Virus record (IMG/VR): IMGVR_UViG_3300019854_000029
Coordinates: 32,001-96,000 of that record
From: a virus
DNA: 64,000 nucleotides
Reading direction: 5' to 3' (one strand)
Numbering within the stretch: the stretch's first letter is position 1; every line of letters starts with the position of its first letter. The notes below the pieces were generated by a model. It ran no database searches and was not told the DNA's origin. It saw nothing but the letters and a program-made list of their open reading frames with translations. This document shows, piece after piece, positions 5,026-46,669 of this stretch. The translations under genes and the position numbers were made by a program.

Positions 5026-5403
5026 GTGTTCATCGAAACCACGCGCCCAGACGTGAAAGAAACCATCCTCGTCCCTAGCCGCGAGTGGGACGAGGCGTGT
5101 AAGCCGATCACTGAAGCTATCCGCGAGCGCGGCTATGTCGATGTCGTGCGCACAACCCTCGGTAGGAACCCGCAAACACAATGGGTTTCATTGGCCGGGG
5201 ACGCAGACGGAAGCATCGTGCTTGACGACGTTGAAGCCCCATATTGCGGCGAGGTCACACTTAACGTCCCGCAGGCTCCCATGCCAGTTGTTGCAGTGAA
5301 GATGGGCGATGGGCCGGTCGAGTGGCGGCAGGAAGGTGATGAGATTGTGCCTCATCAAGACGAAACCGCATACCCGATTGATATAATTGCCATACTCTCA
5401 TAA
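5026..5403 (+). CDS. hypothetical protein (125 aa)
   Basis: GTG ORF with GAAGGGA about 10 nt upstream, packed 4 nt after the previous stop. Confidence 0.6.
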   Translation: MFIETTRPDVKETILVPSREWDEACKPITEAIRERGYVDVVRTTLGRNPQTQWVSLAGDADGSIVLDDVEAPYCGEVTLNVPQAPMPVVAVKMGDGPVEWRQEGDEIVPHQDETAYPIDIIAILS

Positions 5404-5420
5404 TTTATGTACACCATAGG
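5388..5420 (+). promoter_or_regulatory. conserved promoter-like element, copy F
   Basis: tGCCATACTCTCATAATTTATGTACACCATAGG. Reads as TTGCCA-N17-TACACC. Lies 10 nt upstream of ATG 5430 and overlaps the stop of the previous gene. Confidence 0.6.
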
Positions 5421-5429
5421 AAGCTAAAC

Positions 5430-7331
5430 ATGGACCCGGAAAACACCCCAGACTTTGTGACCACCATCTTGAATGTTGGCACTCACTTCGCAGACGATGA
5501 AGCTCTCAAGGCCCTCTATAGCGCCTATGGGAGCACAAGCATCCCCGAAGAGTTCGCTATCGTGCGCAACGAGGACGGTAGTTACGACGTTATCCGCGCA
5601 GACGAAGTAGACGACCCCTCTAGCGTCGTCACCGAGCCTCCTTTCATGGCCGACGAAGCTGACACCCCCGCACGCGCGGTAGACGGGGAAGAGGAACCAG
5701 AAGAAGGCGATGAGCCGATCATTGTCCACTGGGACGAAGATGAGGACGAGGACGAAGAAGAAGCCTCTAGCATCACCGTAAAACCGGAAGCTCTGGCCGA
5801 AGCCTCCGAAACCGTAGCTCTCACCACTGAAGCCACTCCGCGTAAGAGCGAGAACGTGACGAGCCTCCTTGAAAGCGCCTCCAATATCGCGAACATTACT
5901 CCCGGCGACTACACGATCACCTACGGGGAAACCGTCAACATTAACCAGATCGACGCGCTCCTCCCGTTACGCGAATACCGTAAGGAAACCCGCAGGGGCC
6001 TGAACAATATCGTCAAAGACCTCGGCATCCTCAACCCCATTGTCGTGACCCTCACTGAGGAATACCAGAAGTACCTCGACGCTCACGGGTTCACGACCGC
6101 AGTAGAAGCAGACGCAGCCGGATACGCGGGAGCACGCTACAAGCTCCTCGACGGCTTCCGACGCATGTCCGCAGCCCTGACCTACAACCTTGAAGATGTC
6201 CCCGCGACGATCATCCGCTTCCGCGACCCCCAGCAGTCCAGCGAACTAGCAATATTCTTCCATCTCGTCCTCAACCGCCACCAAAAGCACACGTGGCCCG
6301 AAATCTGGAAGATGCTCCAAACCGTAGACCGCTCCTACACGGTCGAAGCCACAGCCCTCGACTGGCTCCTTGGCATCGACTTGGGCGACAGTATGCGCCT
6401 ACGCGACGTAATGGAATGCGAATACCCCGAAATCATTGACGAGTTCACCAGCGGGAAGCGCTCACTCCTCAAGAGCTACAACAGCTTGCAGAAAGCACGC
6501 CGAGACGAACAAAACCCGCGCGCAATCGACGACACTCGCAGCGTCAACGACGTTGAAGAGGCAAAAGACCTCGCAAACGACGAGGAACAAGCCCCATTGC
6601 CCGATGAGGAAGTCCAAAAGCTCCTCGGCATGGGTGAAGAACTCATCAGCGTCCGCGACGAACTCAACACTGAAGCAAACCTTTTCGCCGGGCTAACCGA
6701 CGAGGACCGTGAAAACTTGGAGAACACGCTCCTCCAAGACGAACTCAGTGGCCTGAAAGACGAGGACTTTCTCGACGAAGGCGAAGTCGTCCCGATCTTC
6801 AACAAGCCTTTCAGTCAGGGCGACGACCTTGACGACCGGTTCCCCGGCCTCGGTAAAGACGTTATCCAAGACCCCAAGAACCGCCAGCCGCTCCCGCCCG
6901 AAACCCGTGCAGCTATCCTCATGCGCGACGGCGCGAAGTGTCAGGCGTGTGGGTTCGGTGAAGGCTATAAGGACAACATTCACCTCGGACTGTTGGAATG
7001 CCACCACATCACCGCCGTGTACCTTGGTGGCGCTGACACTGCCAGTAACTTTGTGACCCTATGTAACCGCTGCCACGCAGCCGTTCACATTTTCGCTGGC
7101 GTTGGTGGACGTATCTACATGGATAAGGAACAGTTCAAGACCGTTCCCGCAGCTCAGAGGCGCACCGACGCTATCTGCTTGCACTACGCGAAGATTCTCC
7201 TACGCGCCGAAGCTGAAACCGGTAAGCGCCTCCGCAAGTACAAGCCTGCCCGCAACCCGTTCTGGGTGGCTCAGGCAATTGCAGAACGCGACGTAAAAAC
7301 CGTTGAAGCACTGACAGGTAGCGCAGCATGA
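5430..7331 (+). CDS. ParB/Srx-like N-terminal domain protein fused to a C-terminal HNH endonuclease
   Basis: ParB-type box KLLDGFRRMSAAL after LPLREYRKETRRGL. Acidic run DEDEDEDEEE. C-terminal HNH signature CQACGF...LECHHITAVYLGG...NFVTLCNRCHAAVH. Confidence 0.8.
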   Translation: MDPENTPDFVTTILNVGTHFADDEALKALYSAYGSTSIPEEFAIVRNEDGSYDVIRADEVDDPSSVVTEPPFMADEADTPARAVDGEEEPEEGDEPIIVHWDEDEDEDEEEASSITVKPEALAEASETVALTTEATPRKSENVTSLLESASNIANITPGDYTITYGETVNINQIDALLPLREYRKETRRGLNNIVKDLGILNPIVVTLTEEYQKYLDAHGFTTAVEADAAGYAGARYKLLDGFRRMSAALTYNLEDVPATIIRFRDPQQSSELAIFFHLVLNRHQKHTWPEIWKMLQTVDRSYTVEATALDWLLGIDLGDSMRLRDVMECEYPEIIDEFTSGKRSLLKSYNSLQKARRDEQNPRAIDDTRSVNDVEEAKDLANDEEQAPLPDEEVQKLLGMGEELISVRDELNTEANLFAGLTDEDRENLENTLLQDELSGLKDEDFLDEGEVVPIFNKPFSQGDDLDDRFPGLGKDVIQDPKNRQPLPPETRAAILMRDGAKCQACGFGEGYKDNIHLGLLECHHITAVYLGGADTASNFVTLCNRCHAAVHIFAGVGGRIYMDKEQFKTVPAAQRRTDAICLHYAKILLRAEAETGKRLRKYKPARNPFWVAQAIAERDVKTVEALTGSAA

Positions 7332-10228: not shown

Positions 10229-11563
10229 ATGAGTTCGCTGCAATTGTCTGCCACACGTTTTAAGGGATTGTCGAGGCGATACCTCGCAGTCGTCGTACTG
10301 CTCATGGTGTCGGTGCTTGCGCTTGCGTTCTCGGGGCCGTCATACGCTTATGACGAGTCCTCGTCTCCGCATAACCAGAAAGATAAGCCTTCCACGTGGT
10401 GTCAGTATTGCGCGGACTCTGACTTCAACTACAACCCCAAAGAAAACAAGGGAATGTCGCAGCAAGACTCATACGATCTTGGTGCGGCTGGGTGTGGTAA
10501 TTTCGCGTTCACTGCAATGGAAGTGCGCGCGGGAGTGAAAGCACGCGGATACACGGTTCTCGATATGCGTTCTGAAGCGAAGAAACTCCAAGACGCAGAC
10601 AAGGACTCGCCGTTCGACGGCCAAGGCTGGCTCTACCAGAACAACTCGCAGGGCTTTAAGCAGGGCGTGGAGAACATTACCAACGGTGAACTCACTCTCG
10701 CCGGTATTGACGGGGACACGAATGGTGCCGGGCGTGGAAGCAACCAGTTCAGTGAAGATGACGTGCGTAACGCCATGAACGAAGGGTATTTCGTGGTCAT
10801 CATGGTCCAAATGGCTGGAAGCACGTCCCGCCACTGGATTGCGGGCGACTACGTTGAAGGCAACACGGTCCACACTATCGACTCCGGCGCGAAAGTCACC
10901 ACCCTTGACCGCACGCGCTACCCCGGTGGTATTGGCCCGATCTTGAAGTTCTCCCGTAAAGACGGGAAGAAACTCCAAGACCTCCCGCACATCGACGAAG
11001 CCGCCACGAACCTTGCCTCCAACAGTGGGGACTCGAACGTCGTCAACACGGGAATGTTGTCTGATTTTGACTTGCCCGGTATGCCTCCACGCACGCAGGG
11101 TGAAACCAAGCGCATGTCCTCTCAAGACATGGAAGAACTCGCGGGCGTTCAGCTTGCTAGTGCCAGTTTCGACAAGCTCAGTCAAACCGAGCGCGACAAC
11201 ATTGTGCAGATCAAGGAACAAAAGCAGCTAGAGGACGCGGCGAGCCTCGACGGCACGTTCTCGCTGGCTATCTCTGTTGTCGGTTTGCTCCTCATCGTGT
11301 GGGATGTTCTTCTTGCAGGCGCATACGCTATCGACCTTGTTTTCTCTGGGGTAGGGGCGTTCACGTTCTTGACGTTCGGCGGGTATGCGGTTCCTCCGGG
11401 CGGTCACGCGGATGAAGCCCTCGGAAGCCCCGACCGTGCGCGTAAGTGGCTCCCTATCCCCAAGGCTATTGGGGTGATGGTGTTGATTTTGCTTGCATCC
11501 GCCCTGTTGACGACGGGTATTTTGGCCGCTGGGATTCACAATCTAGTCACTAAAGTCGTATAG
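10229..11563 (+). CDS. secreted papain-like (C39-like) cysteine peptidase with C-terminal two-TM anchor module
   Basis: Signal-like N-terminus. Candidate catalytic Cys in GAAGCGNFAFTAMEV and His in SRHWIAGDYVEGNTVHTIDSG. C-terminal DFDLPGMP...LLLIVWDVLL module parallels that of 3063..4274. Confidence 0.6.
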   Translation: MSSLQLSATRFKGLSRRYLAVVVLLMVSVLALAFSGPSYAYDESSSPHNQKDKPSTWCQYCADSDFNYNPKENKGMSQQDSYDLGAAGCGNFAFTAMEVRAGVKARGYTVLDMRSEAKKLQDADKDSPFDGQGWLYQNNSQGFKQGVENITNGELTLAGIDGDTNGAGRGSNQFSEDDVRNAMNEGYFVVIMVQMAGSTSRHWIAGDYVEGNTVHTIDSGAKVTTLDRTRYPGGIGPILKFSRKDGKKLQDLPHIDEAATNLASNSGDSNVVNTGMLSDFDLPGMPPRTQGETKRMSSQDMEELAGVQLASASFDKLSQTERDNIVQIKEQKQLEDAASLDGTFSLAISVVGLLLIVWDVLLAGAYAIDLVFSGVGAFTFLTFGGYAVPPGGHADEALGSPDRARKWLPIPKAIGVMVLILLASALLTTGILAAGIHNLVTKVV

Positions 11564-11595
11564 GCCATACTGCTACTATTTGGGTACCCTATGGT
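11563..11595 (+). promoter_or_regulatory. conserved promoter-like element, copy A
   Basis: GGCCATACTGCTACTATTTGGGTACCCTATGGT, 30 nt upstream of ATG 11626. Confidence 0.6.
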
Positions 11596-12883: not shown

Positions 12884-12905
12884 AACCGTGCGGTACTTCA
12901 GTAGA

Positions 12906-15934: not shown

Positions 15935-16207
15935 CTATACGTTATCGGTGTTCTGTGCGTCTACCAGTTCTCGTATTCGCACCGTGCTCACTTTCCTGCC
16001 GGTGTCAGCTAGGGAGAGGAGCGTTAGGAACTCGGGCATTGTGGGAGCGCGGTTCCCGCTGTTGATGTTCGCTAGGCGAGTGGTGCCGATGCCGAGGGCT
16101 TGAGCGATGTCCTTGTTTGTGCAGCCGCGTTGTTCTTTGACTCGCAGTAGGGTCTCGGTCCATAAGGCTAGGCTTTTGTAGGAGTTCTGTAGTGGTGTTC
16201 GGGCCAC
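15935..16207 (-). CDS. XRE-family helix-turn-helix transcriptional regulator
   Basis: CTNKDIAQALGIGTTRLANINSGNRAPTMPEFLTLL is a typical HTH_XRE pattern. Confidence 0.75.
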   Translation of the reverse strand: MARTPLQNSYKSLALWTETLLRVKEQRGCTNKDIAQALGIGTTRLANINSGNRAPTMPEFLTLLSLADTGRKVSTVRIRELVDAQNTDNV

Positions 16208-18420: not shown

Positions 18421-18453
18421 CCCACTGTAATACCTATTTAGGTACATTGCAAG
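18421..18453 (+). promoter_or_regulatory. conserved promoter-like element, copy E (weaker 5' half)
   Basis: CCCACTGTAATACCTATTTAGGTACATTGCAAG. The TTTAGGTACA core is in register with the other copies. Points toward ATG 18591. Confidence 0.45.
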
Positions 18454-18485
18454 TCTGTTTTCGTAGTGTTCGCCACACAAACACG

Positions 18486-18518
18486 CGAAATGATTTCCTA
18501 AATAGGGACTCTATGGTG
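18486..18518 (-). promoter_or_regulatory. conserved promoter-like element, copy G (degenerate)
   Basis: Minus strand reads CACCATAGAGTCCCTATTTAGGAAATCATTTCG. CCATAG and TTTAGG are in register with copy D, but the -10 position is poor. Points toward gene 17258..18379. Confidence 0.3.
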
Positions 18519-22394: not shown

Positions 22395-22403
22395 CACACA
22401 CCA

Positions 22404-22436
22404 TGCCATAGTGCGACTATTTGTGTACAGCATGTG
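22404..22436 (+). promoter_or_regulatory. conserved promoter-like element, copy I
   Basis: tGCCATAGTGCGACTATTTGTGTACAGCATGTG, 70 nt upstream of ATG 22507. Confidence 0.5.
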
Positions 22437-26027: not shown

Positions 26028-26060
26028 GGCCATACTGCTACTATTTAGGTACAACACAAA
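26028..26060 (+). promoter_or_regulatory. conserved promoter-like element, copy B
   Basis: GGCCATACTGCTACTATTTAGGTACAACACAAA. The first 25 nt match copy A except one base. Followed by a C/A-rich leader to ATG 26156. Confidence 0.6.
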
Positions 26061-32160: not shown

Positions 32161-32460
32161 CTAGCTTGCAATGAGTTCTTGCCTACGAGCAAGAGTTTCA
32201 CGCATTTCCTTGCGCTCCTTCATGGTGGTTCCACCCCAAATACCGCGTTCCTCGTCCTCTGAGGTGAGTGCGGCTTCTAGGCACTCGATACGCACGGGGC
32301 ACTGTGAGCACAGTTCGATTGCCAGTCTGGCTTGTGCGGTCTGTCCCGCGCCGGGGAACCAAATGTCCGGGTCAGTTTGGGAGCAGATTCCTTGCTGCCG
32401 CCATGATTCTTTGCTGTTGGTGATGATGATGTCGTTAACGAACTTGCGCATTGGTCGCAT
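32161..32460 (-). CDS. whiB: WhiB-family Fe-S transcriptional regulator
   Basis: Four Cys in C-x26-CSQCPVRIEC, then GIWGG. ATG 32460 follows an A/C-rich leader with AGAAAG. The listed ORF extends to 32508. Confidence 0.85.
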   Translation of the reverse strand: MRPMRKFVNDIIITNSKESWRQQGICSQTDPDIWFPGAGQTAQARLAIELCSQCPVRIECLEAALTSEDEERGIWGGTTMKERKEMRETLARRQELIAS

Positions 32461-32494
32461 AATGGTGGGCTTTCTGGTTTGGGTTTGGTTTGGT

Positions 32495-32872
32495 TTACGC
32501 GAGTGCAATGTACGTGTAGGAGCCGTCCGGGAACAGGAAGCGCGGCCCGTCCGGGTAGGAGACGGGAATATCAGCGGGGTCAGACCATTGGGAGACGGCC
32601 CACCCGTGCTCTCGGGCTTCTTCCCGGTGGGTTTCCACGTACCCGTGACATCCGGTGGTGCCGCTTCCGCATAGGACGATGAGGTTCACGGGACTGTTGA
32701 TTTCTTCGTCTTTCGTGCCGCCCATGCCACGCGCTTTACGGTGCTGGATAGAGGACTGAATGTAGGTGATGTCTTTCCCGCACCGTGCGCACCGCCACCC
32801 GTCACGGTTGTACACCAACATGCGGGTTTCAGGGCTGGGGCCGGTAGACCTGTGAGACTTACGTGAGGCCAT
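32495..32872 (-). CDS. HNH endonuclease
   Basis: RDGWRCARCGK...IQHRKARGMGG...NLIVLCGSGTTGCHGYVE. Confidence 0.8.
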   Translation of the reverse strand: MASRKSHRSTGPSPETRMLVYNRDGWRCARCGKDITYIQSSIQHRKARGMGGTKDEEINSPVNLIVLCGSGTTGCHGYVETHREEAREHGWAVSQWSDPADIPVSYPDGPRFLFPDGSYTYIALA

Positions 32873-35043: not shown

Positions 35044-35076
35044 CTTATAGTGTACCTAAATTATGCGACTATGGCT
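35044..35076 (-). promoter_or_regulatory. conserved promoter-like element, copy D
   Basis: Minus strand reads aGCCATAGTCGCATAATTTAGGTACACTATAAG. It overlaps the stop of the nuclease gene and heads the Gam/RecT/HNH/WhiB block. Confidence 0.6.
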
Positions 35077-35937: not shown

Positions 35938-36468
35938 GTGCAGCACGCTTTCAGGGATGGTCCATACTCTGAGCACATGGTCCCACCACTTGAACTGGAA
36001 AAGTCTCCCCTCGACTTCCTCTCCCACACGTGCGCCGCACTGTCCGGCGATAGTGACACGCTCATTCACTCTGAGGACGAATCCAGCCCAGAATGGCTGT
36101 GGCTACGCCTCATCAACGCTTCACCCTCCCCAATCGGGCGGACAGACTTCGCGCCCATGCTCATACAACAGCTCTGCGATGCTCCCACGGGTAATCCGCT
36201 TGGCTTCTACCGTGTCCGTATTCATGGCGGGTCCGTGTACTTCACGTGCGACACCACTAAGGGAGAAAGCGTCCCACGTCGTGCGGCTGCTGCTATCCGC
36301 AAAATGGTGGAAGCCGTAGACAAGGGACTCCCAAATCCTTTTTGGCCCGCTGAGTGGGACCACCTTCTCACTCGCGGGGGAATAACGTTCACCCCGTGGG
36401 GAGAGTGCGCGCCACGCATGACACAAACATGGGAAGAAGCCATGCAAGACATGACACGGTGTGCCTAA
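35938..36468 (+). CDS. hypothetical protein (176 aa), lone plus-strand gene inside a minus-strand block
   Basis: F/Y/H/D/C codons are strongly C-ending, unlike the overlapping minus ORF, which uses CAT/TGT. A terminator with a plus-strand T-tract lies at 36575-36620. Start codon uncertain. Confidence 0.45.
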   Translation: MQHAFRDGPYSEHMVPPLELEKSPLDFLSHTCAALSGDSDTLIHSEDESSPEWLWLRLINASPSPIGRTDFAPMLIQQLCDAPTGNPLGFYRVRIHGGSVYFTCDTTKGESVPRRAAAAIRKMVEAVDKGLPNPFWPAEWDHLLTRGGITFTPWGECAPRMTQTWEEAMQDMTRCA

Positions 36469-36485
36469 AAGGTACATTTTTGGCC
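36453..36485 (-). promoter_or_regulatory. conserved promoter-like element, copy H
   Basis: Minus strand reads GGCCAAAAATGTACCTTTTAGGCACACCGTGTC. GGCCA and TTTAGGcACAC are in register with the other copies. It points antisense through 35938..36468 toward the nuclease gene. Confidence 0.4.
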
Positions 36486-36643: not shown

Positions 36644-36913
36644 CTAGGCTTTCACGGCCTCGTAGTATTCCTCAATCACGGCCTGTAAAAGATCGTTGTA
36701 GAACTTCTTATCGGTGGGGTGGAACAGTTCGTATTGTTTCCCGTCCGCACTGCGGCCCGTGGGCATTCTCAGGGAGTATCCGCCTGCGGTGAGTACCAGG
36801 CGCACGCCGGTGAGGAGCATGATTCCACTGACGTACACGCACGCTTCGCATAGGTAGTCACTGGGGTCGGGGCTGACGTGGGCGATTTTGACTCGTTCAA
36901 TGGCTGCGCTCAT
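36644..36913 (-). CDS. SpoVG-family protein
   Basis: IERVKIAHV...GVRLVLTAGGYSLRMPTGRSADGKQYELFHPTDKKFYNDLLQAVIEEY matches the SpoVG pattern V.[RK][LI]..V...[IV]R[VL]...G....MP..R..DG.....HP.......AV..EY. ATG 36913 forms an ATGA overlap with the upstream stop. Confidence 0.65.
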   Translation of the reverse strand: MSAAIERVKIAHVSPDPSDYLCEACVYVSGIMLLTGVRLVLTAGGYSLRMPTGRSADGKQYELFHPTDKKFYNDLLQAVIEEYYEAVKA

Positions 36914-37494
36914 AGGTTGAGTCGCCCCTTGCTCCATCGGACGCGACCGAGTTTGATTTCTTTCTCAATGGCCCTGCGGGGGAAGAACTGTTCGGCTTCT
37001 TGGATGGTTGCTCCGGGGTGTTCTTCTAGGAACGCTCTGAGCGTCGTAGGGGCCGTGTACACGCTCTCGGTGACCTTCCGGGCCTCCGGGCGTTCTACGG
37101 GCTTCCTAGCGGGCATGTGAGGCTCTGTAGAGGCTTTACGTGCCACTTGCTCTACCGCGCGCGGTTGGATAGCTGGACGCGGCTTCGACGCTTCCGCCAC
37201 AAGCTCATCTTCCGACAGTTCCCCAAGGAGCATTGTCAGCATGTCAGGAGTCAACAACTGTTCTTCTTGAGCCAGACGCAACGGCTTAAGGTACTTACTG
37301 CGATCAGCGGGGGTAATGCGACGCGGGTGGGAGAGGAAACTGAACCCTTGGGCGCGTTCCTTCGCCTCGAACTCAGCGAAAAACGCTGCTTTCACCTCGT
37401 CATAGTTCCATGTGCCGATCACGCGGCCCAGATGATACGGGCCTTGAAGATCGTTCAAGCGCTTACCCACCGTAGGGTCGAGTTCAAGATTCAT
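36910..37494 (-). CDS. hypothetical protein
   Basis: ORF 36910..37509. ATG 37494 forms an ATGA overlap with the stop of the coupling-protein gene. Confidence 0.6.
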   Translation of the reverse strand: MNLELDPTVGKRLNDLQGPYHLGRVIGTWNYDEVKAAFFAEFEAKERAQGFSFLSHPRRITPADRSKYLKPLRLAQEEQLLTPDMLTMLLGELSEDELVAEASKPRPAIQPRAVEQVARKASTEPHMPARKPVERPEARKVTESVYTAPTTLRAFLEEHPGATIQEAEQFFPRRAIEKEIKLGRVRWSKGRLNL

Positions 37495-39647: not shown

Positions 39648-39650
39648 GGT

Positions 39651-39803
39651 TCACCTCACCAAAAATAGAGACACAAGCACGGTCACAACAGCAATGAGCA
39701 CGGCGACCACGTAAAAGCTATTCTTCGTGGACTCGTTCATATCAAGAGACTTCACCCACGAGATCGACAGGATTAAAAACATCGTGATAAGCGTGACTAA
39801 CAT
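39651..39803 (-). CDS. small two-TM membrane protein (50 aa), absent from the ORF track
   Basis: MLVTLITMFLILSISWVKSLDMNESTKNSFYVVAVLIAVVTVLVSLFLVR. Its ATG shares one base with the upstream TGA, and it fills the gap between two transfer genes. Confidence 0.45.
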   Translation of the reverse strand: MLVTLITMFLILSISWVKSLDMNESTKNSFYVVAVLIAVVTVLVSLFLVR

Positions 39804-40756
39804 CAGCGCGCCCAATCCTTGTACTGGTCAATGATGTAGGACGCGGGGTCAACACCATCAGAGTCTTTCAGGAGATTGTCGAGGTCCTTGTCGATAGAGA
39901 CAAGCCACCCGGTGTCTTGCGCGGGGTAACGCTGCACGGTGATATCGAACGACACCTCACGCATGGGCACGTCACTATCACTCGTCGTACCGGTCTGAAG
40001 ATGGTCAATGGACTGCTGGTAAGCGTTCGTCACGTACTGGTAAGCGATCTGCTGGCCTTTAGCCGAGTCAGCCTCACCCTTCATCGCGTCCTTGAGCTGC
40101 GCAAAGAGCTTGTCTTTGTCCTTGAGCCAGAAACTCTTATTGCTCATGTCGATCATCTTTGCGCGCACCGTGTATGACTCTTTATCGCCCGTAAAGTTCG
40201 CGCTACGAGACACGCTCTGCACCTGCAAGGACAGCAAACCAAGACGGTAGCGTTCCCGCTTGTACTGGTCCTTAAAGTCCGACGTTGACGCGGTAGAAGA
40301 ATCAAAATAGTCCGCGTAAGTTGTCACGACGCTACTACGACGCGAATAGAACTGCGCGGTCGAAAAATCCAGCGTATTCAACGCGCGCATGTACGTGTAC
40401 ACGACCTCATCAGGAGCCGTGTCCTTGTTCCCCAACGACAGGGGCGTGCCGTCGGTGTCCCAAATGAACCCGTCCTTGGGGGTTCCGTACTTTTCGCGTA
40501 GTTTGTCTTGCTGGCGCATGAGAACTTGGTCTACGCCTTCGGGGCCGCTCGACGCGGAAGCATTGCTTTTCGCTGATGCGGACGCTGCGACTTCTGCGCG
40601 TACTTTATCGACGTTCGCTTGTGCGCTGCGTGACCTTACGAGACCGTATGTGCCGATCAACAGTGCGATCACTAATGCGACGGCAATGCCCGCCGTGGTG
40701 CCCCGGTGGGTTTTCACCCACTGACCTACATTGTTTGGCTTTAGTTTCTCGTCCAC
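39803..40756 (-). CDS. bitopic membrane protein, possible TcpC/VirB8-like transfer component
   Basis: Single N-terminal TM (AGIAVALVIALLIGTYGL) and a ~270-aa extracytoplasmic domain. The role is inferred only from topology and position between the two ATPases. Confidence 0.5.
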   Translation of the reverse strand: MDEKLKPNNVGQWVKTHRGTTAGIAVALVIALLIGTYGLVRSRSAQANVDKVRAEVAASASAKSNASASSGPEGVDQVLMRQQDKLREKYGTPKDGFIWDTDGTPLSLGNKDTAPDEVVYTYMRALNTLDFSTAQFYSRRSSVVTTYADYFDSSTASTSDFKDQYKRERYRLGLLSLQVQSVSRSANFTGDKESYTVRAKMIDMSNKSFWLKDKDKLFAQLKDAMKGEADSAKGQQIAYQYVTNAYQQSIDHLQTGTTSDSDVPMREVSFDITVQRYPAQDTGWLVSIDKDLDNLLKDSDGVDPASYIIDQYKDWAR

Positions 40757-40788
40757 TCCCTTAACCTTTCTAGGACCGTCTGAGATTT

Positions 40789-43065
40789 TTACTCGATGCC
40801 ATTAAAGAAATCATCAGCACTCGGCTCACTATCGGCCTTATTTGGCATTGCCGCGTGCTTACCGCGCCCCAAAGCGGAGGGCAGTGTCGGTTCACTTGCG
40901 AGAATCTTATCGACTTCGCTTTCCAGAATCGTTGTCTCAAGGTGCGGGCCGTCGTCCACGCTTTGCGAGAGTACGCCGTCGAGGACTGTTTCTTCAGGGT
41001 CTCGGCTCGTACCGGTCTTGAACAAGCTGCTCTCGGCAATGTAATCGGGGAGCATGACTTTACCGACCGTGAGGACAGCTTGATTCAGGCAGATGAGGAA
41101 CGCGCGGTTATACGCACTCGATAGTTCACTGCTGAGACCGTTGTAGGCTTCAGCGGTGTTTGAGCTTGCTGCGATACGTTCAAGTTCACGTTCGATCACG
41201 TCTTGACTGAACCCGTTCTCACCACTGGACAGGGCGTGAGCAAGTCCCTTACGGTCCTCACTACTACCCAAGTAACCGATAGCCCACGACTGGATGTTGC
41301 CGAGAATATCGAGACCGTTCGCCTTGTCGAGGAACTGGCCCGGCTCGTTGGAAACAATGAGGTTAATGTCGCCCATCTTTCGGCCACCCGTGAGGGCCGT
41401 GCCGATAATTTCCTTCGCACCGGGAATACGCGCCCAACGCTGCAATTCTTCCCACACTGTCGCGTTGAACTTGCCAGCGGCTTTACACGCCACAGAGCGA
41501 GCGTGGTGAACGACCGCCGTGGACAGGTGCGCGATCTGAACGCTGATGTCGTCCATCGTGTTTGAGGTTCGCGATGCCATACCCAAAGCGACAGACACGA
41601 ACCGCGCGTCCTTCACGCTCTTGATCGACACTCGGTGGGAGAAGATGTGTCGGCTCGCGCCGTCTGGCTCAAAGAACTCTGCGAGCTGAGCGCGAATGAA
41701 CGTGAGTGTTTGAGCGAACGCCGGGTCGGTGAGACGGTAGTCGTCACTGTGACCGCCCACGATCATCTCGTGCTGCTGCTTAATGACCGCATACACGTCG
41801 AACAGGCTCAACCCTTCACTGCGATGCCACGTGTGCGGTTCAAGGGAGGACACCCCCGCGCGAGAGTAAGTCGTGGACACCGCGCTTTGGAGAATCTGCC
41901 GCGCCCACTCGCTCTCGGAGCCGCGCCCGACGAGTGCTGACAGGTATGCGAGCGTGTACTGTGCGGACACGTCGTACATGGACATGTCGTCTGCGATACG
42001 GTCCTCAGAAACAGCGATTTCGAGGGGGTCAAAGTACTTCCCGTCATGCCCGCCCATATCGACGATCACGACATCTTCCGGGTTTTGCGCGGCATATAGG
42101 GCGGCGATTGGTTCGTATTCGCTGCCTTCAACGTCGTTGACGGTGATGCGGATACGCGGGTCGTTGAGGAACCCGATCAGCCACGTTTTCACGATGTAGG
42201 ACTTACCGCCACCGGTCTGCGCGATCACGAGAACGTTCTCAGCGCTCATGCCCGAGGCGTGGAAGAGCTTCAGAATCGGGTAGAGCGTGGAAATATCCGT
42301 CGCAATGTACATGCCACGGCTACCGATAATGCCTTGGTCGTAGCCGGAGAAACGGGAAATGATCTCATCGGGGAGCGTCATCTTCCCGGTCCTACGGCCA
42401 ATGCCACGCGACGCGGGACGCAACGCGCTTGAAGCCGACAGGAACGAGGCGATGTCATCTTCCACGCGGCTAATGTGAAGCCCGCACTCTGCGGCTTCCT
42501 TCACGATTGCTTCAAGAGCGCGATCAAAACCTTCCCCACGCGGCCCAGAAAGAGCCATGTAGGACTGGAACGTAAACACGCTGCGCCCGGCTTCGGTTTC
42601 TTCCTTGAAGAATCGCGTGCTGTGTGCGCGGCGGAGCTTACGGGCAACGTCTTGGGCTTCCTTCTCGGGAAGATTGTTCGTAGACGTTGGCATGTCTACT
42701 TTCCCGCTGAGGAGGTTGTCGCTCTGCGTGAGGAGGTTCTTCAATTTGCCTTTAGTCCAGTCCGCGTCAAACGGCGTGGCGGTCGTGAAGAACGCGAGCG
42801 TGTACTGCGAGGAGCCGAGACGCGCGCGGAGCCTGCTGCGCATGAACAGGGGCACCTCATGGTCGTATGCGTCAATCGTGTAGAAAACGGTGACGTTTTG
42901 GGGGCCGGACATGAGAGCAAGATCGTCCGTGTACAAGGAGTGGTTGCGTGCGGGGAACCGCCCGGAAATATTACGGTTCGTCGAGCGTTGAATCATCCAC
43001 TGCCAGAGCTTCCAAAACGGGATTTCTTGGACTTTCTTACGGCGCTTAGGGGTTTTGGTTGGCAT
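40789..43065 (-). CDS. VirB4-like type IV secretion ATPase
   Basis: Walker A VIAQTGGGKSYIV. NATVWEELQRW resembles the DEAW-type Walker B region. Size (758 aa) fits VirB4/TcpF-type proteins. Confidence 0.8.
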   Translation of the reverse strand: MPTKTPKRRKKVQEIPFWKLWQWMIQRSTNRNISGRFPARNHSLYTDDLALMSGPQNVTVFYTIDAYDHEVPLFMRSRLRARLGSSQYTLAFFTTATPFDADWTKGKLKNLLTQSDNLLSGKVDMPTSTNNLPEKEAQDVARKLRRAHSTRFFKEETEAGRSVFTFQSYMALSGPRGEGFDRALEAIVKEAAECGLHISRVEDDIASFLSASSALRPASRGIGRRTGKMTLPDEIISRFSGYDQGIIGSRGMYIATDISTLYPILKLFHASGMSAENVLVIAQTGGGKSYIVKTWLIGFLNDPRIRITVNDVEGSEYEPIAALYAAQNPEDVVIVDMGGHDGKYFDPLEIAVSEDRIADDMSMYDVSAQYTLAYLSALVGRGSESEWARQILQSAVSTTYSRAGVSSLEPHTWHRSEGLSLFDVYAVIKQQHEMIVGGHSDDYRLTDPAFAQTLTFIRAQLAEFFEPDGASRHIFSHRVSIKSVKDARFVSVALGMASRTSNTMDDISVQIAHLSTAVVHHARSVACKAAGKFNATVWEELQRWARIPGAKEIIGTALTGGRKMGDINLIVSNEPGQFLDKANGLDILGNIQSWAIGYLGSSEDRKGLAHALSSGENGFSQDVIERELERIAASSNTAEAYNGLSSELSSAYNRAFLICLNQAVLTVGKVMLPDYIAESSLFKTGTSRDPEETVLDGVLSQSVDDGPHLETTILESEVDKILASEPTLPSALGRGKHAAMPNKADSEPSADDFFNGIE

Positions 43066-43067
43066 GG

Positions 43068-44270
43068 TTAGTCTTTCTGGTGGTGGAGTGAAGCAGCATC
43101 AATGCGTCTGTACATGTCGGTCCATTTTGCATAAGCAACGCGGCGCAATTGTTCGTTCGCCGGGTATTCGACGAGGGCGGGGACTGACAGGAGGAGACTG
43201 GGTGCCGCGCCCACGGACGTGAATGTGCGGGATTTGTCGAGTTTCGCGAGCCGGTTTGCGGTTCCTTCGCTTTCTAGCGCGTACAGGACCTTGCGGCGGT
43301 GTGGGCCGACGTGTTCAACGACATGCCAGTTCGCGTGGGTCGTGTAGTCCACGATGATAGCCGCGTCGAACGCGGTGGATGCGAGGAGCATGTCGTTAAT
43401 GACGTTGCTTGTCGGGTGCTGGGTGAATACGACGCGGGCCGCGAGTTCGGGGGCTGCGACTTCGGTTTCCGGCGTAACCCACGCATAGTTTTTGTACAGG
43501 GCCTTGTACGTGATTCCGGGAGGCATGACAAAGATGAGTCTGCATCGCACGTGTTCAGCGGACTCTAGGTAGTTCTGGAAGCCCATCATGAATGACTTGA
43601 GGTACTTCATGGAGCCGAGAACTTTCACGCGGTACAGGGTTTTCGCGCCCGAGTATTCGACACGGGGGAATACCTTCACAGACACGGAAGAGTCCGCTGC
43701 GCGACCGGTTTTCGTTCGCTTCGCGCTCTGCCTCAGAACAGCGTTTTCTTTTGAGAAGCGCGCGTATCCGGCTGCGAGTTCAAGAACAGCGTCTAATGCT
43801 GCGCTCCCGTCCTCTGTTTGAGTGTCGTCGAGTTTCTTGTATTCGCTGATGAGGGTTTGGGCTGCGCGTGACAGGTGGGGGGCGATGTCTGTAGCGCCGT
43901 TGAGGACGCTGATAGCGCCGTCTGCGGGGCTTTCATTACCGAATAGGGTGACAGCCTCAAGGAACCCGTTAAGAGCGTCCTCAGAGTCCATGTAGGAGCC
44001 GTTAGTGACGATTCCCCCACACGTGGACACGGCGATACGCACCAACGGTGATGGAGTGTCCGACGGGTAGATGATCGTCGCATCGGGGGCTTCTTTACGC
44101 GCGTCGCGCACGAACTGGGCGATGGTTACGGGAGCGTCGTCACTGTGGTGGATGACAAGTGCGTCCAATGACAGGGAACCCAAGGCGCGTCGCGCGTCCT
44201 CCACGTTCGTGTACGTCACCCATGAGGGGAACCCTCTCGCGGGGGCTGTGTTTGAGATGAGCATTTTCAT
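43068..44270 (-). CDS. receiver-like N-terminal domain plus degenerate ParA/MinD-like domain (TadZ/CpaE-like architecture, tentative)
   Basis: MKMLISN...LDALVIHHSDD has a receiver-like beta-alpha pattern. The C-terminal half has RVKVLGSMKYLKSF (no GKT/S) and FDAAIIVDYT (Walker B-like). Confidence 0.4.
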   Translation of the reverse strand: MKMLISNTAPARGFPSWVTYTNVEDARRALGSLSLDALVIHHSDDAPVTIAQFVRDARKEAPDATIIYPSDTPSPLVRIAVSTCGGIVTNGSYMDSEDALNGFLEAVTLFGNESPADGAISVLNGATDIAPHLSRAAQTLISEYKKLDDTQTEDGSAALDAVLELAAGYARFSKENAVLRQSAKRTKTGRAADSSVSVKVFPRVEYSGAKTLYRVKVLGSMKYLKSFMMGFQNYLESAEHVRCRLIFVMPPGITYKALYKNYAWVTPETEVAAPELAARVVFTQHPTSNVINDMLLASTAFDAAIIVDYTTHANWHVVEHVGPHRRKVLYALESEGTANRLAKLDKSRTFTSVGAAPSLLLSVPALVEYPANEQLRRVAYAKWTDMYRRIDAASLHHQKD

Positions 44271-45592
44271 GCCGATACCTCGGTGGGTTGTGCGAGGAAG
44301 CGGAGCTGGCGGAACATCGGGTCACGGTTCCACACGAACTTTTGCCCAAGCCGCGTAGCGTTCATTGCGAGTTCTTCACTCGGTTCGCCCGCATACAGCC
44401 AGCCATTAGAGGCGACGATTTCTTGGAGGTCGTCGTCAAAGCGCTCGCGTGACACGAAATTGTTCAGCATCGTGGCGATTGCTTTAACTCGCGGGGAAGC
44501 GTCAAGGAACGCGGTTCCGCTCACCCAGTGGATAGACGCGGGGAACGCTTTAGAGATCGCTTTGATCTGCGTCGCATAGTCGTTGTCTCCACTGAGGAAC
44601 ACGGGAATGATCGTGTAGTCGAAACGGGGGATGAGGCCGGTGAGTTCATCGAGGCCACCGGGGGTGAGTGTTTCTCCCGCGTTGGGGCTGGTCACGTACA
44701 GGGTTTGTGTCTGCTGGTATGGGGTGCTGATGGGGAGTGAGCGGTGGAACTCGGTGTAAAAGTCCGGGTTGCTCGTCACGTGGGACAGGAATGCTTCATT
44801 GTTGACGGTACTGGCGATGAGCGTGCTGTAACCGCGCTGCGAGTAGTAGTCAGCGAGAGTGCGCGTGTAGGTGAAGAGCCGGTTCGGTGTGGAGCCGATG
44901 ATGATGTTGACGCGCGCCCCGGTGTTGAGCACGGGGAACGCCCCGCCTTGGGCTTCAACGTAGGTGGGGAACGCTTCAGACAACGCGGGGAAATCGTTGA
45001 GCTTTAGTTGCGGGTATTCGCTCAGTTCCGCACTGTCCTCGTCGTCGGAGTCAAAGTACATCGTGTCCGAGTGGGCCACACCCAATGATGCGAAATCCTG
45101 CTCTGCGACCATTGTGGGGGCCGCGTACTGGCGGGTTTCTTCGGGGGCCTGCGAGGTGATGGTGGGCAGCTCGTTACTGTAGGTCTTGTGTGCGTCTTGG
45201 AACTCGACGAACGACATTGACCCCGCGTCCTTGAAGAACTGGGGCCACGACAATGCGGTGGACTCCAACGCGCACGCCAGCGGGTAGGTGATGCCACGGA
45301 CGAAACCTAGTGCAACCTGCTCGTTCTGTGCGAAACAGATCACGTCGATCTGCTGGACGACGTTTTCACGCTGCGCGTCTGCGAGGTACGTGTCGAGGAG
45401 GCGTAGTTCGCTTGCTGCGATTTCCTTGTTTGCGAGGACAAGAATACGGTCGAAAGACTCGTTCTTGATCGCAATGGTCTCGTAGAACTCTTTGATGGTG
45501 TGGTATGCGGAAAACTCTGCTGCGTCAGCGTTGCCGCGCGCAAAGTTGAGTACCTTTTCGGGCGACATGTCCGCGATGATGCAAATCTTCAC
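44267..45592 (-). CDS. receiver-like N-terminal domain plus degenerate ParA/MinD-like domain, architectural paralog of 43068..44270 (tentative)
   Basis: MKICIIADMS...FDRILVLANKE. The C-terminal half has RVNIIIGSTPNRLF (no GKT/S) and FDYTIIPVFLSGD. ATGA overlaps on both sides. Confidence 0.4.
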   Translation of the reverse strand: MKICIIADMSPEKVLNFARGNADAAEFSAYHTIKEFYETIAIKNESFDRILVLANKEIAASELRLLDTYLADAQRENVVQQIDVICFAQNEQVALGFVRGITYPLACALESTALSWPQFFKDAGSMSFVEFQDAHKTYSNELPTITSQAPEETRQYAAPTMVAEQDFASLGVAHSDTMYFDSDDEDSAELSEYPQLKLNDFPALSEAFPTYVEAQGGAFPVLNTGARVNIIIGSTPNRLFTYTRTLADYYSQRGYSTLIASTVNNEAFLSHVTSNPDFYTEFHRSLPISTPYQQTQTLYVTSPNAGETLTPGGLDELTGLIPRFDYTIIPVFLSGDNDYATQIKAISKAFPASIHWVSGTAFLDASPRVKAIATMLNNFVSRERFDDDLQEIVASNGWLYAGEPSEELAMNATRLGQKFVWNRDPMFRQLRFLAQPTEVSA

Positions 45593-46584
45593 TTTGTAAC
45601 CCTTCCTTGTGAAGTTTCGTCACCGGTATAACGTTTTTGGCCGCTTGCTGTTTCCACGTAAATCGGGTGAATGCTCCCAGAGTAGGAAGCGGAAACGGAG
45701 CTGTTGAGAGCGTCTGCGACAGAGAAGTTGTCAATCCCGTAGATCGTTTCGGTGAGCTGACCGAGGAGCGTGCGATCAAGGGGTTGGACGCTCATCCAGT
45801 TACCCCGGCTGATGAGGATAGAAGAGAACGCTCGGTAGCCTTCGATGAGGGCTTCTGCGGACGCGCGGGAAGCGTCCATTGATAGACAGAACACGTCACT
45901 GGGGGTGCGGGAGGCGCGTTGCTCTTCTTCGAGGTTCGCGATGATCGCGGTCCCGATGTTACGGAAGTCCTCATTGGGGGCTTGTGCGAGGTCGGTGTAC
46001 ATGCGCTCAAAGCGTGGCCGGTCGTCGAGGGTACCCATGAAGTCGATGTGTCGGACGGCGATGTTGCGTTTACCGGCTTCTTGGTATGCATCGGCTAGTC
46101 CGTCCCAGTTCGCGCTCACGTCTCTGCCTTGCGTGCGGCCCACGGTCATGCCTTTGTGGGCGAGGAGGTAGATGCCGATTTGACCACCTACGAAATAGCA
46201 AATGTAGGGAGCGTCGTCGTCGATACGGTAAATGCCCCAGAGTCTACCTTCGGGCATGATGAGGTCTCGTTCGTTCATGCCTTTCCATGCGCGGCGCACG
46301 GTGCGTTCGTCGAGGAGGAGGAACCGGCAAGCGTAGAGAACAGCGAGGGGAATGATTGCGAGGAACAAGGGGACTTTAATGAGCGCGGCCATCGGAACCC
46401 ACGCGAGGCAGGCGAGGCAGACAACGGCGGTCACAGGCATTGCGATCATTGCTGCGATGCGGCGCTGGTGTTTTGAGTCAGCCATTGTGACTGCTGGCTG
46501 AAACTCTAGGCCAAGGGGGATGCGTAGGGTTTCGTCCCCGGTGCGGGGATGGTAGTCGTATTGGTCTGTGAGGTTGTCGCTCAT
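45589..46584 (-). CDS. two-TM membrane protein with large cytoplasmic domain, first gene of the ATPase operon
   Basis: Hydrophobic hairpin IAAMIAMPVTAVVCLACLAWVPMAALIKVPLFLAIIPLAVLYACRFLLL. Lies about 50 nt downstream of promoter-like copy C. Confidence 0.65.
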   Translation of the reverse strand: MSDNLTDQYDYHPRTGDETLRIPLGLEFQPAVTMADSKHQRRIAAMIAMPVTAVVCLACLAWVPMAALIKVPLFLAIIPLAVLYACRFLLLDERTVRRAWKGMNERDLIMPEGRLWGIYRIDDDAPYICYFVGGQIGIYLLAHKGMTVGRTQGRDVSANWDGLADAYQEAGKRNIAVRHIDFMGTLDDRPRFERMYTDLAQAPNEDFRNIGTAIIANLEEEQRASRTPSDVFCLSMDASRASAEALIEGYRAFSSILISRGNWMSVQPLDRTLLGQLTETIYGIDNFSVADALNSSVSASYSGSIHPIYVETASGQKRYTGDETSQGRVTK

Positions 46585-46636
46585 TCTTATGCTTTCGGTT
46601 GATGTGATGGTTCGTTGAGTCTATGTAACATACTAA

Positions 46637-46669
46637 CCTATAGTGTACCTATTTTATAGGAGTATGGCC
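46637..46669 (-). promoter_or_regulatory. conserved promoter-like element, copy C
   Basis: Minus strand reads GGCCATACTCCTATAAAATAGGTACACTATAGG. Reads as cGGCCA-N17-TACACT. Confidence 0.6.

Follow-up and report, generated by a model that had tools for sequence, protein, structure and literature searches.

A conserved 26-nt promoter-like module repeated across a widespread oral plasmid

The DNA considered here, a stretch of 64,000 nucleotides called the window (positions 32,001 to 96,000 of IMG/VR record IMGVR_UViG_3300019854_000029), belongs to an element of ~120 kb that is plasmid-like and conjugative and is widespread in human-associated metagenomes. Its individual proteins are found in 200–800 near-identical copies on contigs of 117–133 kb in public metagenomes. 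The element is essentially without annotation and is classed as a virus in IMG/VR; phage structural genes are absent from it. Coding sequence makes up 93% of the window, and includes genes for a ParB_N-HNH protein, adhesins, three HTH paralogs, a RecT/HNH/WhiB block, and a transfer cluster.

A short sequence recurs among these genes. The pattern GCCATANTNNNANNATTTNNGTAC with up to three mismatches is matched seven times in the window, while shuffled sequences gave 0.20 matches on average and two at the maximum. In a position weight matrix scan, six near-identical copies (5389+, 11564+, 22405+, 26029+, 35075-, and 46668-) score 41–47 bits against 15.6 bits for the best shuffle, confirming that the promoter-like repeat described in an earlier note on this DNA is real. 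The coordinates given there also hold, since the one-base offset comes solely from one extra leading base. Its count of nine copies survives only in part: the six strong ones stand, but its copy at 36485- (36484- here) is weak at about 14 bits, and the pair at 18421+ and 18518- (18422+ and 18518- here) carries the right-hand part CCTATTTAGG only. Furthermore, a seventh good copy, 57510-, had been missed; it scores 21.8 bits, or 35 bits with an enlarged matrix, and is thus better than 36484-. The copies in the window are listed below with their predicted promoter features, "G" denoting site groups.

5389..5414, + strand: G0, GCCATACTCTCATAATTTATGTACAC; predicted -10 CATAAT at 5399-5404 and predicted start at A 5411; leader of 19 nt to the ParB_N-HNH gene 5430-7331 (Pfam); overlaps the stop of the upstream ORF 5026-5403
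11564..11589, + strand: G7, GCCATACTGCTACTATTTGGGTACCC; TGn and TACTAT, no -35-like hexamer; predicted start 11586; ATG 11626 behind a GAGGAG ribosome-binding site; starts directly after the stop of 10229-11563
22405..22430, + strand: G11, GCCATAGTGCGACTATTTGTGTACAG; GTGACA at 22391-22396, spacer of 18 nt, TGn and GACTAT; predicted start 22427; downstream a 102-aa ORF 22507-22815, 22878-23537, then the LPXTG/TQ adhesin gene 23491-25854 (Pfam)
26029..26054, + strand: G3, GCCATACTGCTACTATTTAGGTACAA; GTGACA at 26016-26021, spacer of 17 nt, TG, TACTAT at 26039-26044; predicted start 26051; leader of 105 nt to the first of the three HTH paralogs (26156-28727)
35050..35075, - strand: G2, GCCATAGTCGCATAATTTAGGTACAC; predicted start 35053; begins at the stop codon of the GmrSD_C nuclease gene 35075-35821; operon of a 44-aa ORF 34867-35001, a 182-aa ORF, a RecT-like gene 32874-34247, an HNH gene 32495-32872 and WhiB 32161-32508
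46643..46668, - strand: G4, GCCATACTCCTATAAAATAGGTACAC; predicted start 46646; in a 250-nt gap (46585-46834); leader of 62 nt to the transfer operon 45589-46584, 44267-45592, 43068-44270 and the VirB4-like gene 40789-43065 (Pfam)
57485..57510, - strand: G9, GCCATTATCCGATAATTCAGGCACAC; predicted start 57488; overlaps the 3′ end of 57496-58323; ATG 57448 opens a 225-aa ORF with no function assigned
36459..36484, - strand: G14 (weak), GCCAAAAATGTACCTTTTAGGCACAC; central TACCTT still fits TAnnnT; kept in 6 related contigs; antisense to the + strand ORF 35938-36468; next co-oriented gene is the nuclease gene, 641 nt away
18422..18518: partial pair in a divergent gap, the two facing each other; 18422+ is CCACTGTAATACCTATTTAGGTACA and 18518-, read on the - strand, is ACCATAGAGTCCCTATTTAGGAAA; only the CCTATTTAGG part is common, the GCCATA box and a clean -10 being absent

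All seven good copies begin either in an intergenic gap or in the last ~15 nt of the upstream gene, and all are co-oriented with the gene that follows, whose start codon, equipped with a ribosome-binding site, lies 19–105 nt past column 23 of the module on the same strand. For these copies, the earlier description of promoter-like elements set before genes is borne out; 36484- is the exception, aiming into the 3′ end of a convergent ORF. The designation "operon head" given to every copy is inferred, and several copies sit within long co-directional gene arrays.

Taken together, the window and 8 related IMG/VR contigs contain 14 site groups (G0–G13) sharing the same 26-nt block with unrelated flanks; counting G5, G6, and G10 as one, there are 12 independent sites. 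Beyond those in the window, the related contigs contribute six distinct groups, situated in front of tRNA-Ser and tRNA-Lys, a ParM-like gene, and an array of iterons. The best copies of all have tRNA-Ser ~100 nt and tRNA-Lys ~340 nt downstream. Each full-length related contig (100–123 kb) has 5–7 exact matches to the pattern. In 185,579 species-representative genomes, the strict pattern occurs without excess over the ~35 matches that we estimate for chance. The motif is also absent from PLSDB plasmids and GenBank phages, as well as from three metagenomic sequences distantly related to the transfer cluster, in which no site scores above 8.5 bits. It is restricted to this element family; the same short site is found at many promoter-like positions of one element and not elsewhere in these collections.

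Conservation across the independent sites covers 26 columns, GCCATAcTssnAyAATTTaGGTACAc, rather than the ~33 nt first described, with a sharp 5′ edge and a fading signal beyond column 26. The central hexamer nAyAAT at columns 11–16, formerly regarded as conserved spacer, is by its sequence a textbook -10. Indeed, A12 and A15 are present in 12/12 sites and T16 in 11/12, which gives the A at position 2 and the T at position 6 of TAnnnT, while the first position is T in 5/12 sites only. The variable columns are 7, 9–11, 13–14, and 19; they include hexamer positions 1, 3, and 4, those that are partly free in the sigma-A pattern TAnnnT. Transcription should then start at the invariant A of column 23. 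Metagenome contigs with the G0 leader (17 loci, contigs of 1 to 130 kb) include none that starts near the predicted start.

Upstream of the hexamer, the sites are diverse. A -35-like TTGCTT or GTGACA is located 17–18 nt upstream of the -10 in G1, G3, G5/6/10, and G11. Four groups (G3, G5/6/10, G7, and G11) have TGn in front of the -10. Neither an acceptable -35 (at 16–18 nt) nor TGn is present in G0, G2, G4, G9, G12, and G13, i.e., in 6/12 sites. A generic sigma-70 scan, run independently, reported GTGACA-17-TACTAT with TG at 26016-26044, which is the hexamer pair of G3. Columns -20 to -18, which immediately precede the -35 position, are also weakly A-rich. Two asymmetric boxes, GCCATAsT at about -22 to -15 and TTaGGTACA at about -6 to +3, flank the -10 and form neither a dyad nor a clear direct repeat. 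Conservation thus goes far beyond what sigma-A recognition needs, a point already made in the earlier note.

The boxes are under purifying selection. Among orthologous copies across contigs, diversity is 0.004 in columns 1–8, 0.008 in columns 12–18, and 0.023 in columns 20–26; it is also low, 0.05, in the -35 zone, and reaches 0.186 in the 4-nt stretch between this zone and the module and 0.19 further upstream. The evolutionary depth of this footprint is shallow because the family members are all about 92–99% identical. In the case of G5/G6/G10, the sequence upstream of the -35 zone is wholly different between contigs while the module and the genes behind it do not change, indicating that a module moves together with its genes.

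Which polymerase might use these sites can be approached from the gene content. The Pfam listing for the ~200 ORF clusters from the window and related loci contains no sigma-70-domain or RNA polymerase family, nor is an RNA polymerase of any kind in the Pfam and PHROG listings for the same loci. A search for the D.DGD catalytic motif gave no convincing match, and two giant ORFs have zero sequence matches in PDB. The host polymerase is therefore the default reading. Each copy would be a promoter for the host enzyme with its primary, sigma-A type factor, having the -10 at columns 11–16 and, upstream, a variable -35-like hexamer, a TGn extension, or neither. Around this ordinary core, the two boxes would be common to about a dozen otherwise unrelated promoters, presumably serving the transfer genes, adhesins, RecT/HNH/WhiB block, ParB-HNH, and HTH paralogs as well as the ParM-like gene, the iteron region, and two tRNA genes. 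Our best guess is that the boxes are the site for an element-encoded regulator, probably a repressor, and the operons are probably under this one regulator. The complete proposal, host sigma-A promoters with boxes bound by one element-encoded protein that joins the operons into a single regulon and represses them by occlusion, is put forward tentatively, its chance being somewhat short of even. Occlusion is the simplest mode because the site covers both the -10 and the start point and is found even on promoters with near-consensus -35 and -10; it would allow a global shut-off of the kind known from other large plasmids and plasmid-prophages. Two features count against repression: asymmetric boxes without a dyad are unusual for HTH-dimer repressors, and the strongest copies precede tRNA genes, for which constitutive expression might be expected.

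The absence of both a -35-like hexamer and TGn from about half of the promoters fits positive control equally well. An activator or sigma-associated factor of the element, such as an activator like Lpa immediately 5′ of the -10 or a WhiB-like protein bound to region 4 of sigma-A, would recruit or stabilize polymerase at the boxes, and the modules would form a temporally activated promoter class, e.g., after transfer or on induction. The WhiB gene inside a module-driven operon and the A-rich signal near the -35 position are in line with this. However, promoters lacking a -35 are normal in Actinobacteria, which leaves the missing hexamers with little weight, and the near-consensus TTGCTT-17/18-TAyAAT promoters keep the boxes just as faithfully. 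A right box over the start site is an odd location for an activator, and no activator was identified. Positive control is considered rather unlikely. If no dedicated factor existed, the module might be a strong host promoter optimized through further contacts in the spacer, in the discriminator, and around the start, and duplication or recombination would have spread it along with gene modules. The tRNA genes behind the best copies and the mobility of the G5/G6/G10 modules would agree with such an origin, and early promoter families of phages T5 and T4 likewise have homology outside the hexamers. Still, to our knowledge no RNA polymerase contact requires an invariant GCCATA at -22 to -17, and the chance-level occurrence of the motif in the 185,579 genomes, in a test limited by a strict pattern and by the lack of a known host, speaks against a general promoter form there; this explanation appears improbable.

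In other readings, the boxes themselves become recognition elements of a polymerase. The earlier note had read nnGCCA-N17-TACAcy as the hexamers; more broadly, GCCA(TA) could be a -35 and TACAcy or GGTACA a -10 for sigma-A or for an alternative host sigma of the group-3, SigB/SigF-like type. Promoters for SigB/SigF in Actinobacteria and Bacillus have GTTT/GGWWT at -35 and GGGTA(C/T) at -10, separated by a spacer that is not conserved. GGTAC is similar to the latter, the 12–13 nt between GCCATA and (A)GGTAC are similar to the spacing for Bacillus SigB, and both boxes are conserved. On the other hand, the last base of TACAcy is T in 3/12 sites only, the invariant A12, A15, T16, and T17 would become unexplained spacer, and the conserved -35 zone in orthologues would have no explanation; GCCATA mismatches the GTTT/GGWWT motifs. 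The sites do not belong to the group-3 class, given the mismatched left box and the invariant "spacer," the right box GGTAC fitting in part, and this reading is very unlikely altogether. Further still from acceptance is a promoter for a phage-type single-subunit RNA polymerase, suggested by the right half ATTTAGGTACACTATAG, which resembles SP6 and K11 promoters: by eye, copies 35075- and 46668- match the SP6 promoter ATTTAGGTGACACTATAG but for one missing base and the K11 promoter at 16/21 positions without gaps. Promoters of the T7/SP6 type have TATA at -4 to -1, an initiating G, and conservation limited to about -17 to +6, whereas the would-be TATA and +1 G (columns 27–33) are not conserved among the sites, conservation reaches about 14 nt too far upstream, and the listings above lack an RNA polymerase, the giant ORFs having no PDB match. 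The position frequency matrix effectively refutes such a promoter, and the likelihood left to it is minimal. A bolder idea, also to be regarded as improbable, is that a new kind of element-encoded factor recognizes the module and redirects polymerase to it. Instead of a -35 element, this factor would read DNA on either side of the -10, at -22 to -15 and -6 to +3; it could be a complex of the plasmid WhiB with sigma-A or an unrecognizable sigma-like or appropriator protein from an orphan ORF.

Returning to a regulator bound at the boxes, the element encodes several candidates, and binding by an element factor (WhiB-sigma, XRE, or the HTH paralogs), as the earlier note supposed, is plausible. 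The genes concerned are as follows.

32161..32508, - strand: WhiB-like protein (Pfam Whib, E = 2.3e-20), last gene of the G2-headed operon
15935..16207, - strand: XRE-type HTH protein of 90 aa (Pfam HTH_19/HTH_3)
36644..36937, - strand: probable member of the SpoVG family, encoded where the transfer cluster ends

The WhiB-like protein is a candidate trans factor that might act via sigma-A region 4, and the XRE-type protein is a candidate repressor. The single SpoVG match (E = 2.5e-7) pertains to the window ORFs collectively, with no specific ORF mapped; it is assigned to 36644-36937 because of the sequence of this ORF and the conserved FtsK-x-SpoVG gene order in relatives. SpoVG of S. aureus binds TAATT(T/A) (PMC3688583), and the protein here is a weak candidate factor. 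HU, a MucR-like protein, and the 44-aa ORF are encoded as well; none of these six candidates (XRE, WhiB, SpoVG, HU, MucR-like, and the 44-aa ORF) could be tied to the module. The three HTH paralogs, an orphan family for which no fold match was obtained, adjoin the iteron array, a position that suggests a different job.

The 26-nt module offers a handle on the transcription map of the element. About a dozen start sites are predicted, and candidate co-regulated operons for transfer, adhesion, recombination, partition, and tRNAs are marked. TTAGGTAC and GCCATA are the box sequences, and the 26-mer is a bait for finding the regulator. If the boxes are an operator, they would define another plasmid-wide regulon; if they are a polymerase-recognition element, they would represent a new means by which "own" promoters are marked in Actinobacteria. 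In the case of a redirecting factor, a widespread human-associated actinobacterial plasmid would possess a private promoter class.

Promoter sites shared across a whole plasmid or phage are already known from other plasmids and phages. The C1 operators of P1 are asymmetric and scattered over its genome. P1 is an extrachromosomal element of ~94 kb in which C1 is the primary repressor of early genes, and a conserved 9-bp repeat to which the activator Lpa binds is common to its 11 late promoters (PMC10695390). The likeness is that tens of transcription units are coordinated by short conserved promoter sites. However, there is no sequence similarity, P1 has an enterobacterial host as compared with a presumed actinobacterium, and the present element lacks phage structural genes; the Lpa box is an inverted repeat, unlike the asymmetric boxes on both sides of the -10. 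In IncP plasmids RK2/RP4, operators for KorA, KorB, and TrbA are located in or near the -10 and -35. These conjugative plasmids likewise have replication, partition, and transfer operons that share operators in one repressible regulon, whereas Kor operators are palindromic and dimer-bound, and the organism and promoter sequences differ. No KorA/KorB homologue was identified here, and the ParB_N-HNH gene is a target, any putative regulator role aside. Actinophages also have repeated regulatory sites. Stoperators of cluster A mycobacteriophages are 13–14 bp long and mostly outside the promoter core, those of the L5 type being asymmetric and repressor-bound, and phiC31 has conserved inverted repeats and early promoters. 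Common to these actinobacterial mobile elements are many conserved intergenic copies oriented with transcription. The module has the asymmetry and co-orientation of stoperators, but it is 26 bp long and each good copy includes a -10; the phiC31 sites differ as inverted repeats, and the actinophage systems share no sequence or protein with the element.

The closest known relative of the transfer cluster, though not of the motif, is pXO16 (pBTHD789-1) of Bacillus thuringiensis sv. israelensis. This large conjugative plasmid transfers by aggregation-mediated mating, and its T4SS-related system is atypical, with few homologues in databases (PMC6199540). Host phylum, G+C content, and size are different, yet a giant ORF, several genes, a VirB4-like gene, FtsK/SpoIIIE, and SpoVG follow in the same order in both, and the VirB4-like protein is 31% identical to its pXO16 counterpart.

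The repeated element in the window is confirmed. With at most three mismatches allowed, the core GCCATANTNNNANNATTTNNGTAC has seven matches in the window, against a mean of 0.20 and a maximum of 2 in dinucleotide-preserving shuffles. A position weight matrix made from the six strong copies gives these copies 41–47 bits, while the top score in shuffled windows is 15.6 bits. By pattern count and matrix score, the six strong copies reported in an earlier note from the sequence alone (5389+, 11564+, 22405+, 26029+, 35075−, and 46668−) are borne out. A seventh copy, GCCATTATCCGATAATTCAGGCACAC at 57510−, had been overlooked, and its matrix score is clearly above that of 36484−, which had been listed. 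Two other sites listed as weaker copies, 18422+ and 18518−, have only CCTATTTAGG in common with the rest. The window has a coding fraction of 93%, and all seven good copies start either between genes or within the final few codons of the gene before them, with a same-strand start codon and its ribosome-binding site 19 to 105 nt past column 23 of the 26-nt module. Thus, the claim that every copy is intergenic or at a gene end and co-oriented with the next gene holds for the seven good copies but not for 36484−, which points antisense into a convergent ORF; the nuclease gene proposed as its target is 641 nt distant.

Good copies in the window, genes downstream, and predicted starts (within 1–2 nt, on the reading of columns 11–16 as the −10)
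5389, plus strand: ParB_N-HNH gene; predicted start 5411
11564, plus strand: ORF without assigned function, for which the earlier label "LigA-C-like" could not be confirmed; predicted start 11586
22405, plus strand: two small ORFs, then an LPXTG/TQ adhesin gene; predicted start 22427
26029, plus strand: three HTH paralogs; predicted start 26051
35075, minus strand: 44-aa ORF, 182-aa ORF, RecT-like, HNH, and WhiB genes; predicted start 35053
46668, minus strand: transfer operon with a VirB4-like gene as its fourth gene; predicted start 46646
57510, minus strand: ORF without assigned function; predicted start 57488

When the window and related contigs are pooled, the copies form 14 site groups (G0–G13) with unrelated flanks, a gain over the earlier note of one window copy and six site groups elsewhere on the element. 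Counting the related groups G5, G6, and G10 once leaves 12 independent sites, whose frequency matrix has a sharp 5′ edge, fades past column 26, and defines the block GCCATAcTssnAyAATTTaGGTACAc; outside this block there is little information except a weak AAA at columns −20 to −18. Taken as a −10 hexamer, columns 11–16 have A at positions 2 and 5 in 12/12 sites and T at position 6 in 11/12, with variable positions 1, 3, and 4; this is just the pattern of a −10 of the sigma-70 family. TTGCTT or GTGACA is found 17–18 nt upstream of it in G1, G3, G5/6/10, and G11, and TGn precedes it in G3, G5/6/10, G7, and G11, while six sites have neither. T8, together with G at column 9 where present, would fit an extended −10. 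Independently, a generic promoter scan returned GTGACA-17-TACTAT with TG at 26016–26044. Given this −10, the start is expected at the invariant A of column 23, which would put the left box, GCCATAsT, at about −22 to −15 and the right box, TTaGGTACA, at about −6 to +3. The −10 accounts neither for the invariant GCCATA of the left box (−22 to −17) nor for the right-hand side (TTAGGTAC), where TTaGGTACA spans the discriminator and the start site.

The earlier note had placed the −10 at columns 22–27 (TACAcy), where the terminal T is present in only three of the 12 sites. The final T of the −10 is one of the two positions most needed by a sigma-70-family factor, so that the supposed conserved spacer is the true −10 and the supposed −35 and −10 are two extra boxes. 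The promoter-like character stands, with its hexamers reassigned to a central −10. When the boxes were checked for dyad and direct-repeat symmetry, pairing was limited to GCC...GG(C/T) and A6/T17. A variant in one related locus (L040), GCCGTA...TACGGC, is a perfect 6-bp inverted repeat, while the consensus is not, and the site is treated as asymmetric. In the divergent promoter gap at 18422–18590, CCTATTTAGG occurs on each strand, the two copies being inverted and some 55 bp apart, and both lack the GCCATA box, so the right-hand box may be a separate unit. The leftward operon from this gap includes the SSB and XRE genes, and a 57-bp tandem repeat of 2.2 copies (17450–17574) lies within a 387-aa ORF (17258–18421).

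For sites with orthologous copies on several contigs, nucleotide diversity was taken by column range. It is 0.19 at columns −59 to −21 (mostly the 3′ end of the upstream gene), 0.05 in the −35 zone (columns −20 to −8), and 0.186 at columns −7 to −4 between this zone and the module; within the module it is 0.004 at columns 1–8, 0.008 at columns 12–18, and 0.023 at columns 20–26, and over the first ~25 nt of the leader it is 0.023. A promoter whose core is constrained and whose −35 zone is functional, with a free stretch of spacer between the two, would be expected to leave such a footprint, and the conservation of the module argues for selection, not recent copying, as the probable cause. Paralogous sites vary at the same few columns each time, which also speaks against simple recent duplication. 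In G5, G6, and G10, contigs share the module and the genes that follow it but have wholly different sequence ahead of the −35 zone, indicating that the module travels with the genes downstream of it. A perfect hairpin, GGTGGTTGCAACGCCACC (35006–35023, minus strand), is present in the RecT/WhiB operon leader, 10 nt past the predicted start; it is kept in related contigs, one of which has a single-base change.

Outside the window, the two top-scoring site groups precede tRNA genes and have a near-consensus TTGCTT-17/18-TAyAAT: tRNA-Ser(GCT) lies ~100 nt downstream of one, and tRNA-Lys(TTT) ~340 nt downstream of the other, after a small ORF. On related contigs, genes for tRNA-Ser(GCT), tRNA-Lys(TTT), and tRNA-Tyr(GTA) are present in the half of the element that lies outside the window (L040:6550–6641; L056:9418–9492 and 12833–12920; and equivalents); inside the window, neither Rfam nor a tRNA scan gave a match. 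G8 is upstream of a ParM-like gene, and G12 and G13 are directed into an iteron array. In the window, about ten iteron-like repeats, cTTGGTyAyrkA, with a period of 21–22 bp (28800–29110) stand after three orphan HTH paralogs and a terminator with a 17-bp stem (28734–28775), forming a candidate replication origin or centromere. A module copy is directly upstream of the same iterons on related contigs (L061:8243 and L040:14379) and not in the window. Many other window gaps are without the module (14766–14879, 29764–29850, 30694–30874, 35822–35937, 39648–39802, and 60365–60554); it marks a subset of promoters, not all.

Neither a sigma factor nor an RNA polymerase encoded by the element was found in the Pfam/PHROG listings, in the PDB search with the giant ORFs (1596 and 1543 aa), or in a catalytic-motif scan, and the default is therefore the host polymerase with its primary sigma factor. 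A promoter for an SP6/K11-like single-subunit polymerase was rejected on the same searches and because the would-be TATA and +1 region are not conserved; two copies resemble SP6/K11 promoters by coincidence, through the 3′ tail, where conservation is lower. T7/SP6-type and SigB/SigF-type promoters also failed in tests on the frequency matrix. In the reading that we favor, at somewhat below an even chance, the boxes are an operator across the −10 and the start point that a putative element-encoded repressor would occupy, since the site covers both and is retained even where a promoter has consensus hexamers of its own. A site over the promoter core of many promoters is the design of the RK2 kor regulon and the P1 C1 operators. 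The boxes may instead act positively, as a site used by an activator or by a factor bound to sigma (WhiB, for instance), which we regard as unlikely; the six sites with neither −35 nor TGn point this way, as does the position of the left box, which recalls the Lpa box found at 11 late promoters of P1 (PMC10695390). An intrinsically optimized promoter without a dedicated factor is given little chance, and so is a private class of factor-dependent promoters in which −35 recognition is replaced. A plasmid-wide regulon is plausible as a hypothesis. Contig ends in the metagenome collection, taken as possible transcript 5′ ends at 17 loci (contigs of 1 to 130 kb), gave no contig-start match and no pile-up at predicted starts.

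For the favored operator, as for positive control, candidate binding proteins are XRE (15935–16207), WhiB (32161–32508), SpoVG (36644–36937), HU-like and MucR-like (outside the window) proteins, and the products of small ORFs that head operons, such as the 44-aa ORF at 34867–35001. The lead to SpoVG is weak: Staphylococcus aureus SpoVG prefers TAATT(T/A) (PMC3688583), which is present at columns 13–18 in five of the 12 sites, but SpoVG is also conserved in relatives without the motif. The three paralogous HTH proteins (26156–28727; ~280 aa, with a C-terminal HTH-like segment) have no Pfam match and only 16 relatives among 1.84 billion cluster representatives, and their confident AlphaFold model (pLDDT 80, pTM 0.80) has no PDB fold match at E < 0.001; the model may represent a new fold. 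None of this lends support to hidden sigma factors or a motif binder, and because the paralogs adjoin the iteron array, a role in replication or partition is at least as likely.

Within the collections searched, the motif is restricted to the element family: a 34-mer queried by BLAST had no real match in PLSDB or among GenBank phages. A megablast search with 24 kb of the window brought up no deposited plasmid or phage, and a literature text search with the motif strings returned unrelated primer sequences only. An exact-pattern scan of 185,579 genomes, one per species, gave 37 single matches in unrelated phyla, by our estimate about the chance number for a pattern of 17–18 specified bases, while in IMG/VR there are 46 loci, 41 of them on eight contigs of 62–123 kb with 5–7 matches each. 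By exact look-up, ten window proteins belong to clusters of 217–816 near-identical members, typically on 117–133 kb contigs, and the element thus looks like a common entity of about 120–130 kb. Only one source has a name, a metagenome-assembled genome at NCBI with the label Trueperella pyogenes; the host appears to be an actinobacterium from the WhiB gene, LGFP repeats, LPXTG adhesin, and G+C of 56%.

No capsid, portal, or terminase came up when about 200 ORF clusters of the window and related loci were scanned against Pfam and PHROG, early phage structural matches having gone after removal of five unrelated chance-match contigs. Together with the transfer cluster, a ParM-like actin gene, and tRNA genes, this led us to treat the element, filed as viral in IMG/VR, as conjugative plasmid-like. 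It also carries genes for LPXTG adhesins, a Ser/Thr kinase, PP2C, and FHA proteins, and TnpB copies (window; L038–L083). The transfer cluster has the order giant ORF, NlpC/P60, three genes, VirB4-like, one gene, FtsK/SpoIIIE, one gene, and SpoVG, common to three distant metagenomic relatives and Bacillus thuringiensis plasmid pBTHD789-1 (= pXO16); the observation covers window 36644–52521 (minus strand), L084, L085, L086, and L105, and the likeness to pXO16 is to the gene order of its tip region. The giant ORF in such clusters has 1596–1834 aa and no Pfam or PDB sequence match, and the order is also seen in elements with 33–52% G+C. Relatives of the ParB-HNH protein are all at least 92% identical, while VirB4-like homologues with 31–37% identity come from 33–52% G+C elements without the motif; hosts and elements differ together here, so comparison with distant relatives cannot separate host-specific from element-specific features. 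In one distant transfer-cluster relative from an HMP sample (52% G+C), a perfect palindrome, CTCGACTTAGCGCGCTAAGTCGAG, adjoins TATAAT ahead of the next gene (L084:20741–20856), another promoter-operator design.

Promoter or operator sites shared across a mobile element are known from C1 and Lpa of P1, Kor of RK2, the conserved repeats of phiC31, and mycobacteriophage stoperators. Neither in sequence nor in protein is the module related to any of these, and its layout, with asymmetric boxes flanking the −10, differs from theirs. It is probably best filed as a further case of this general kind.
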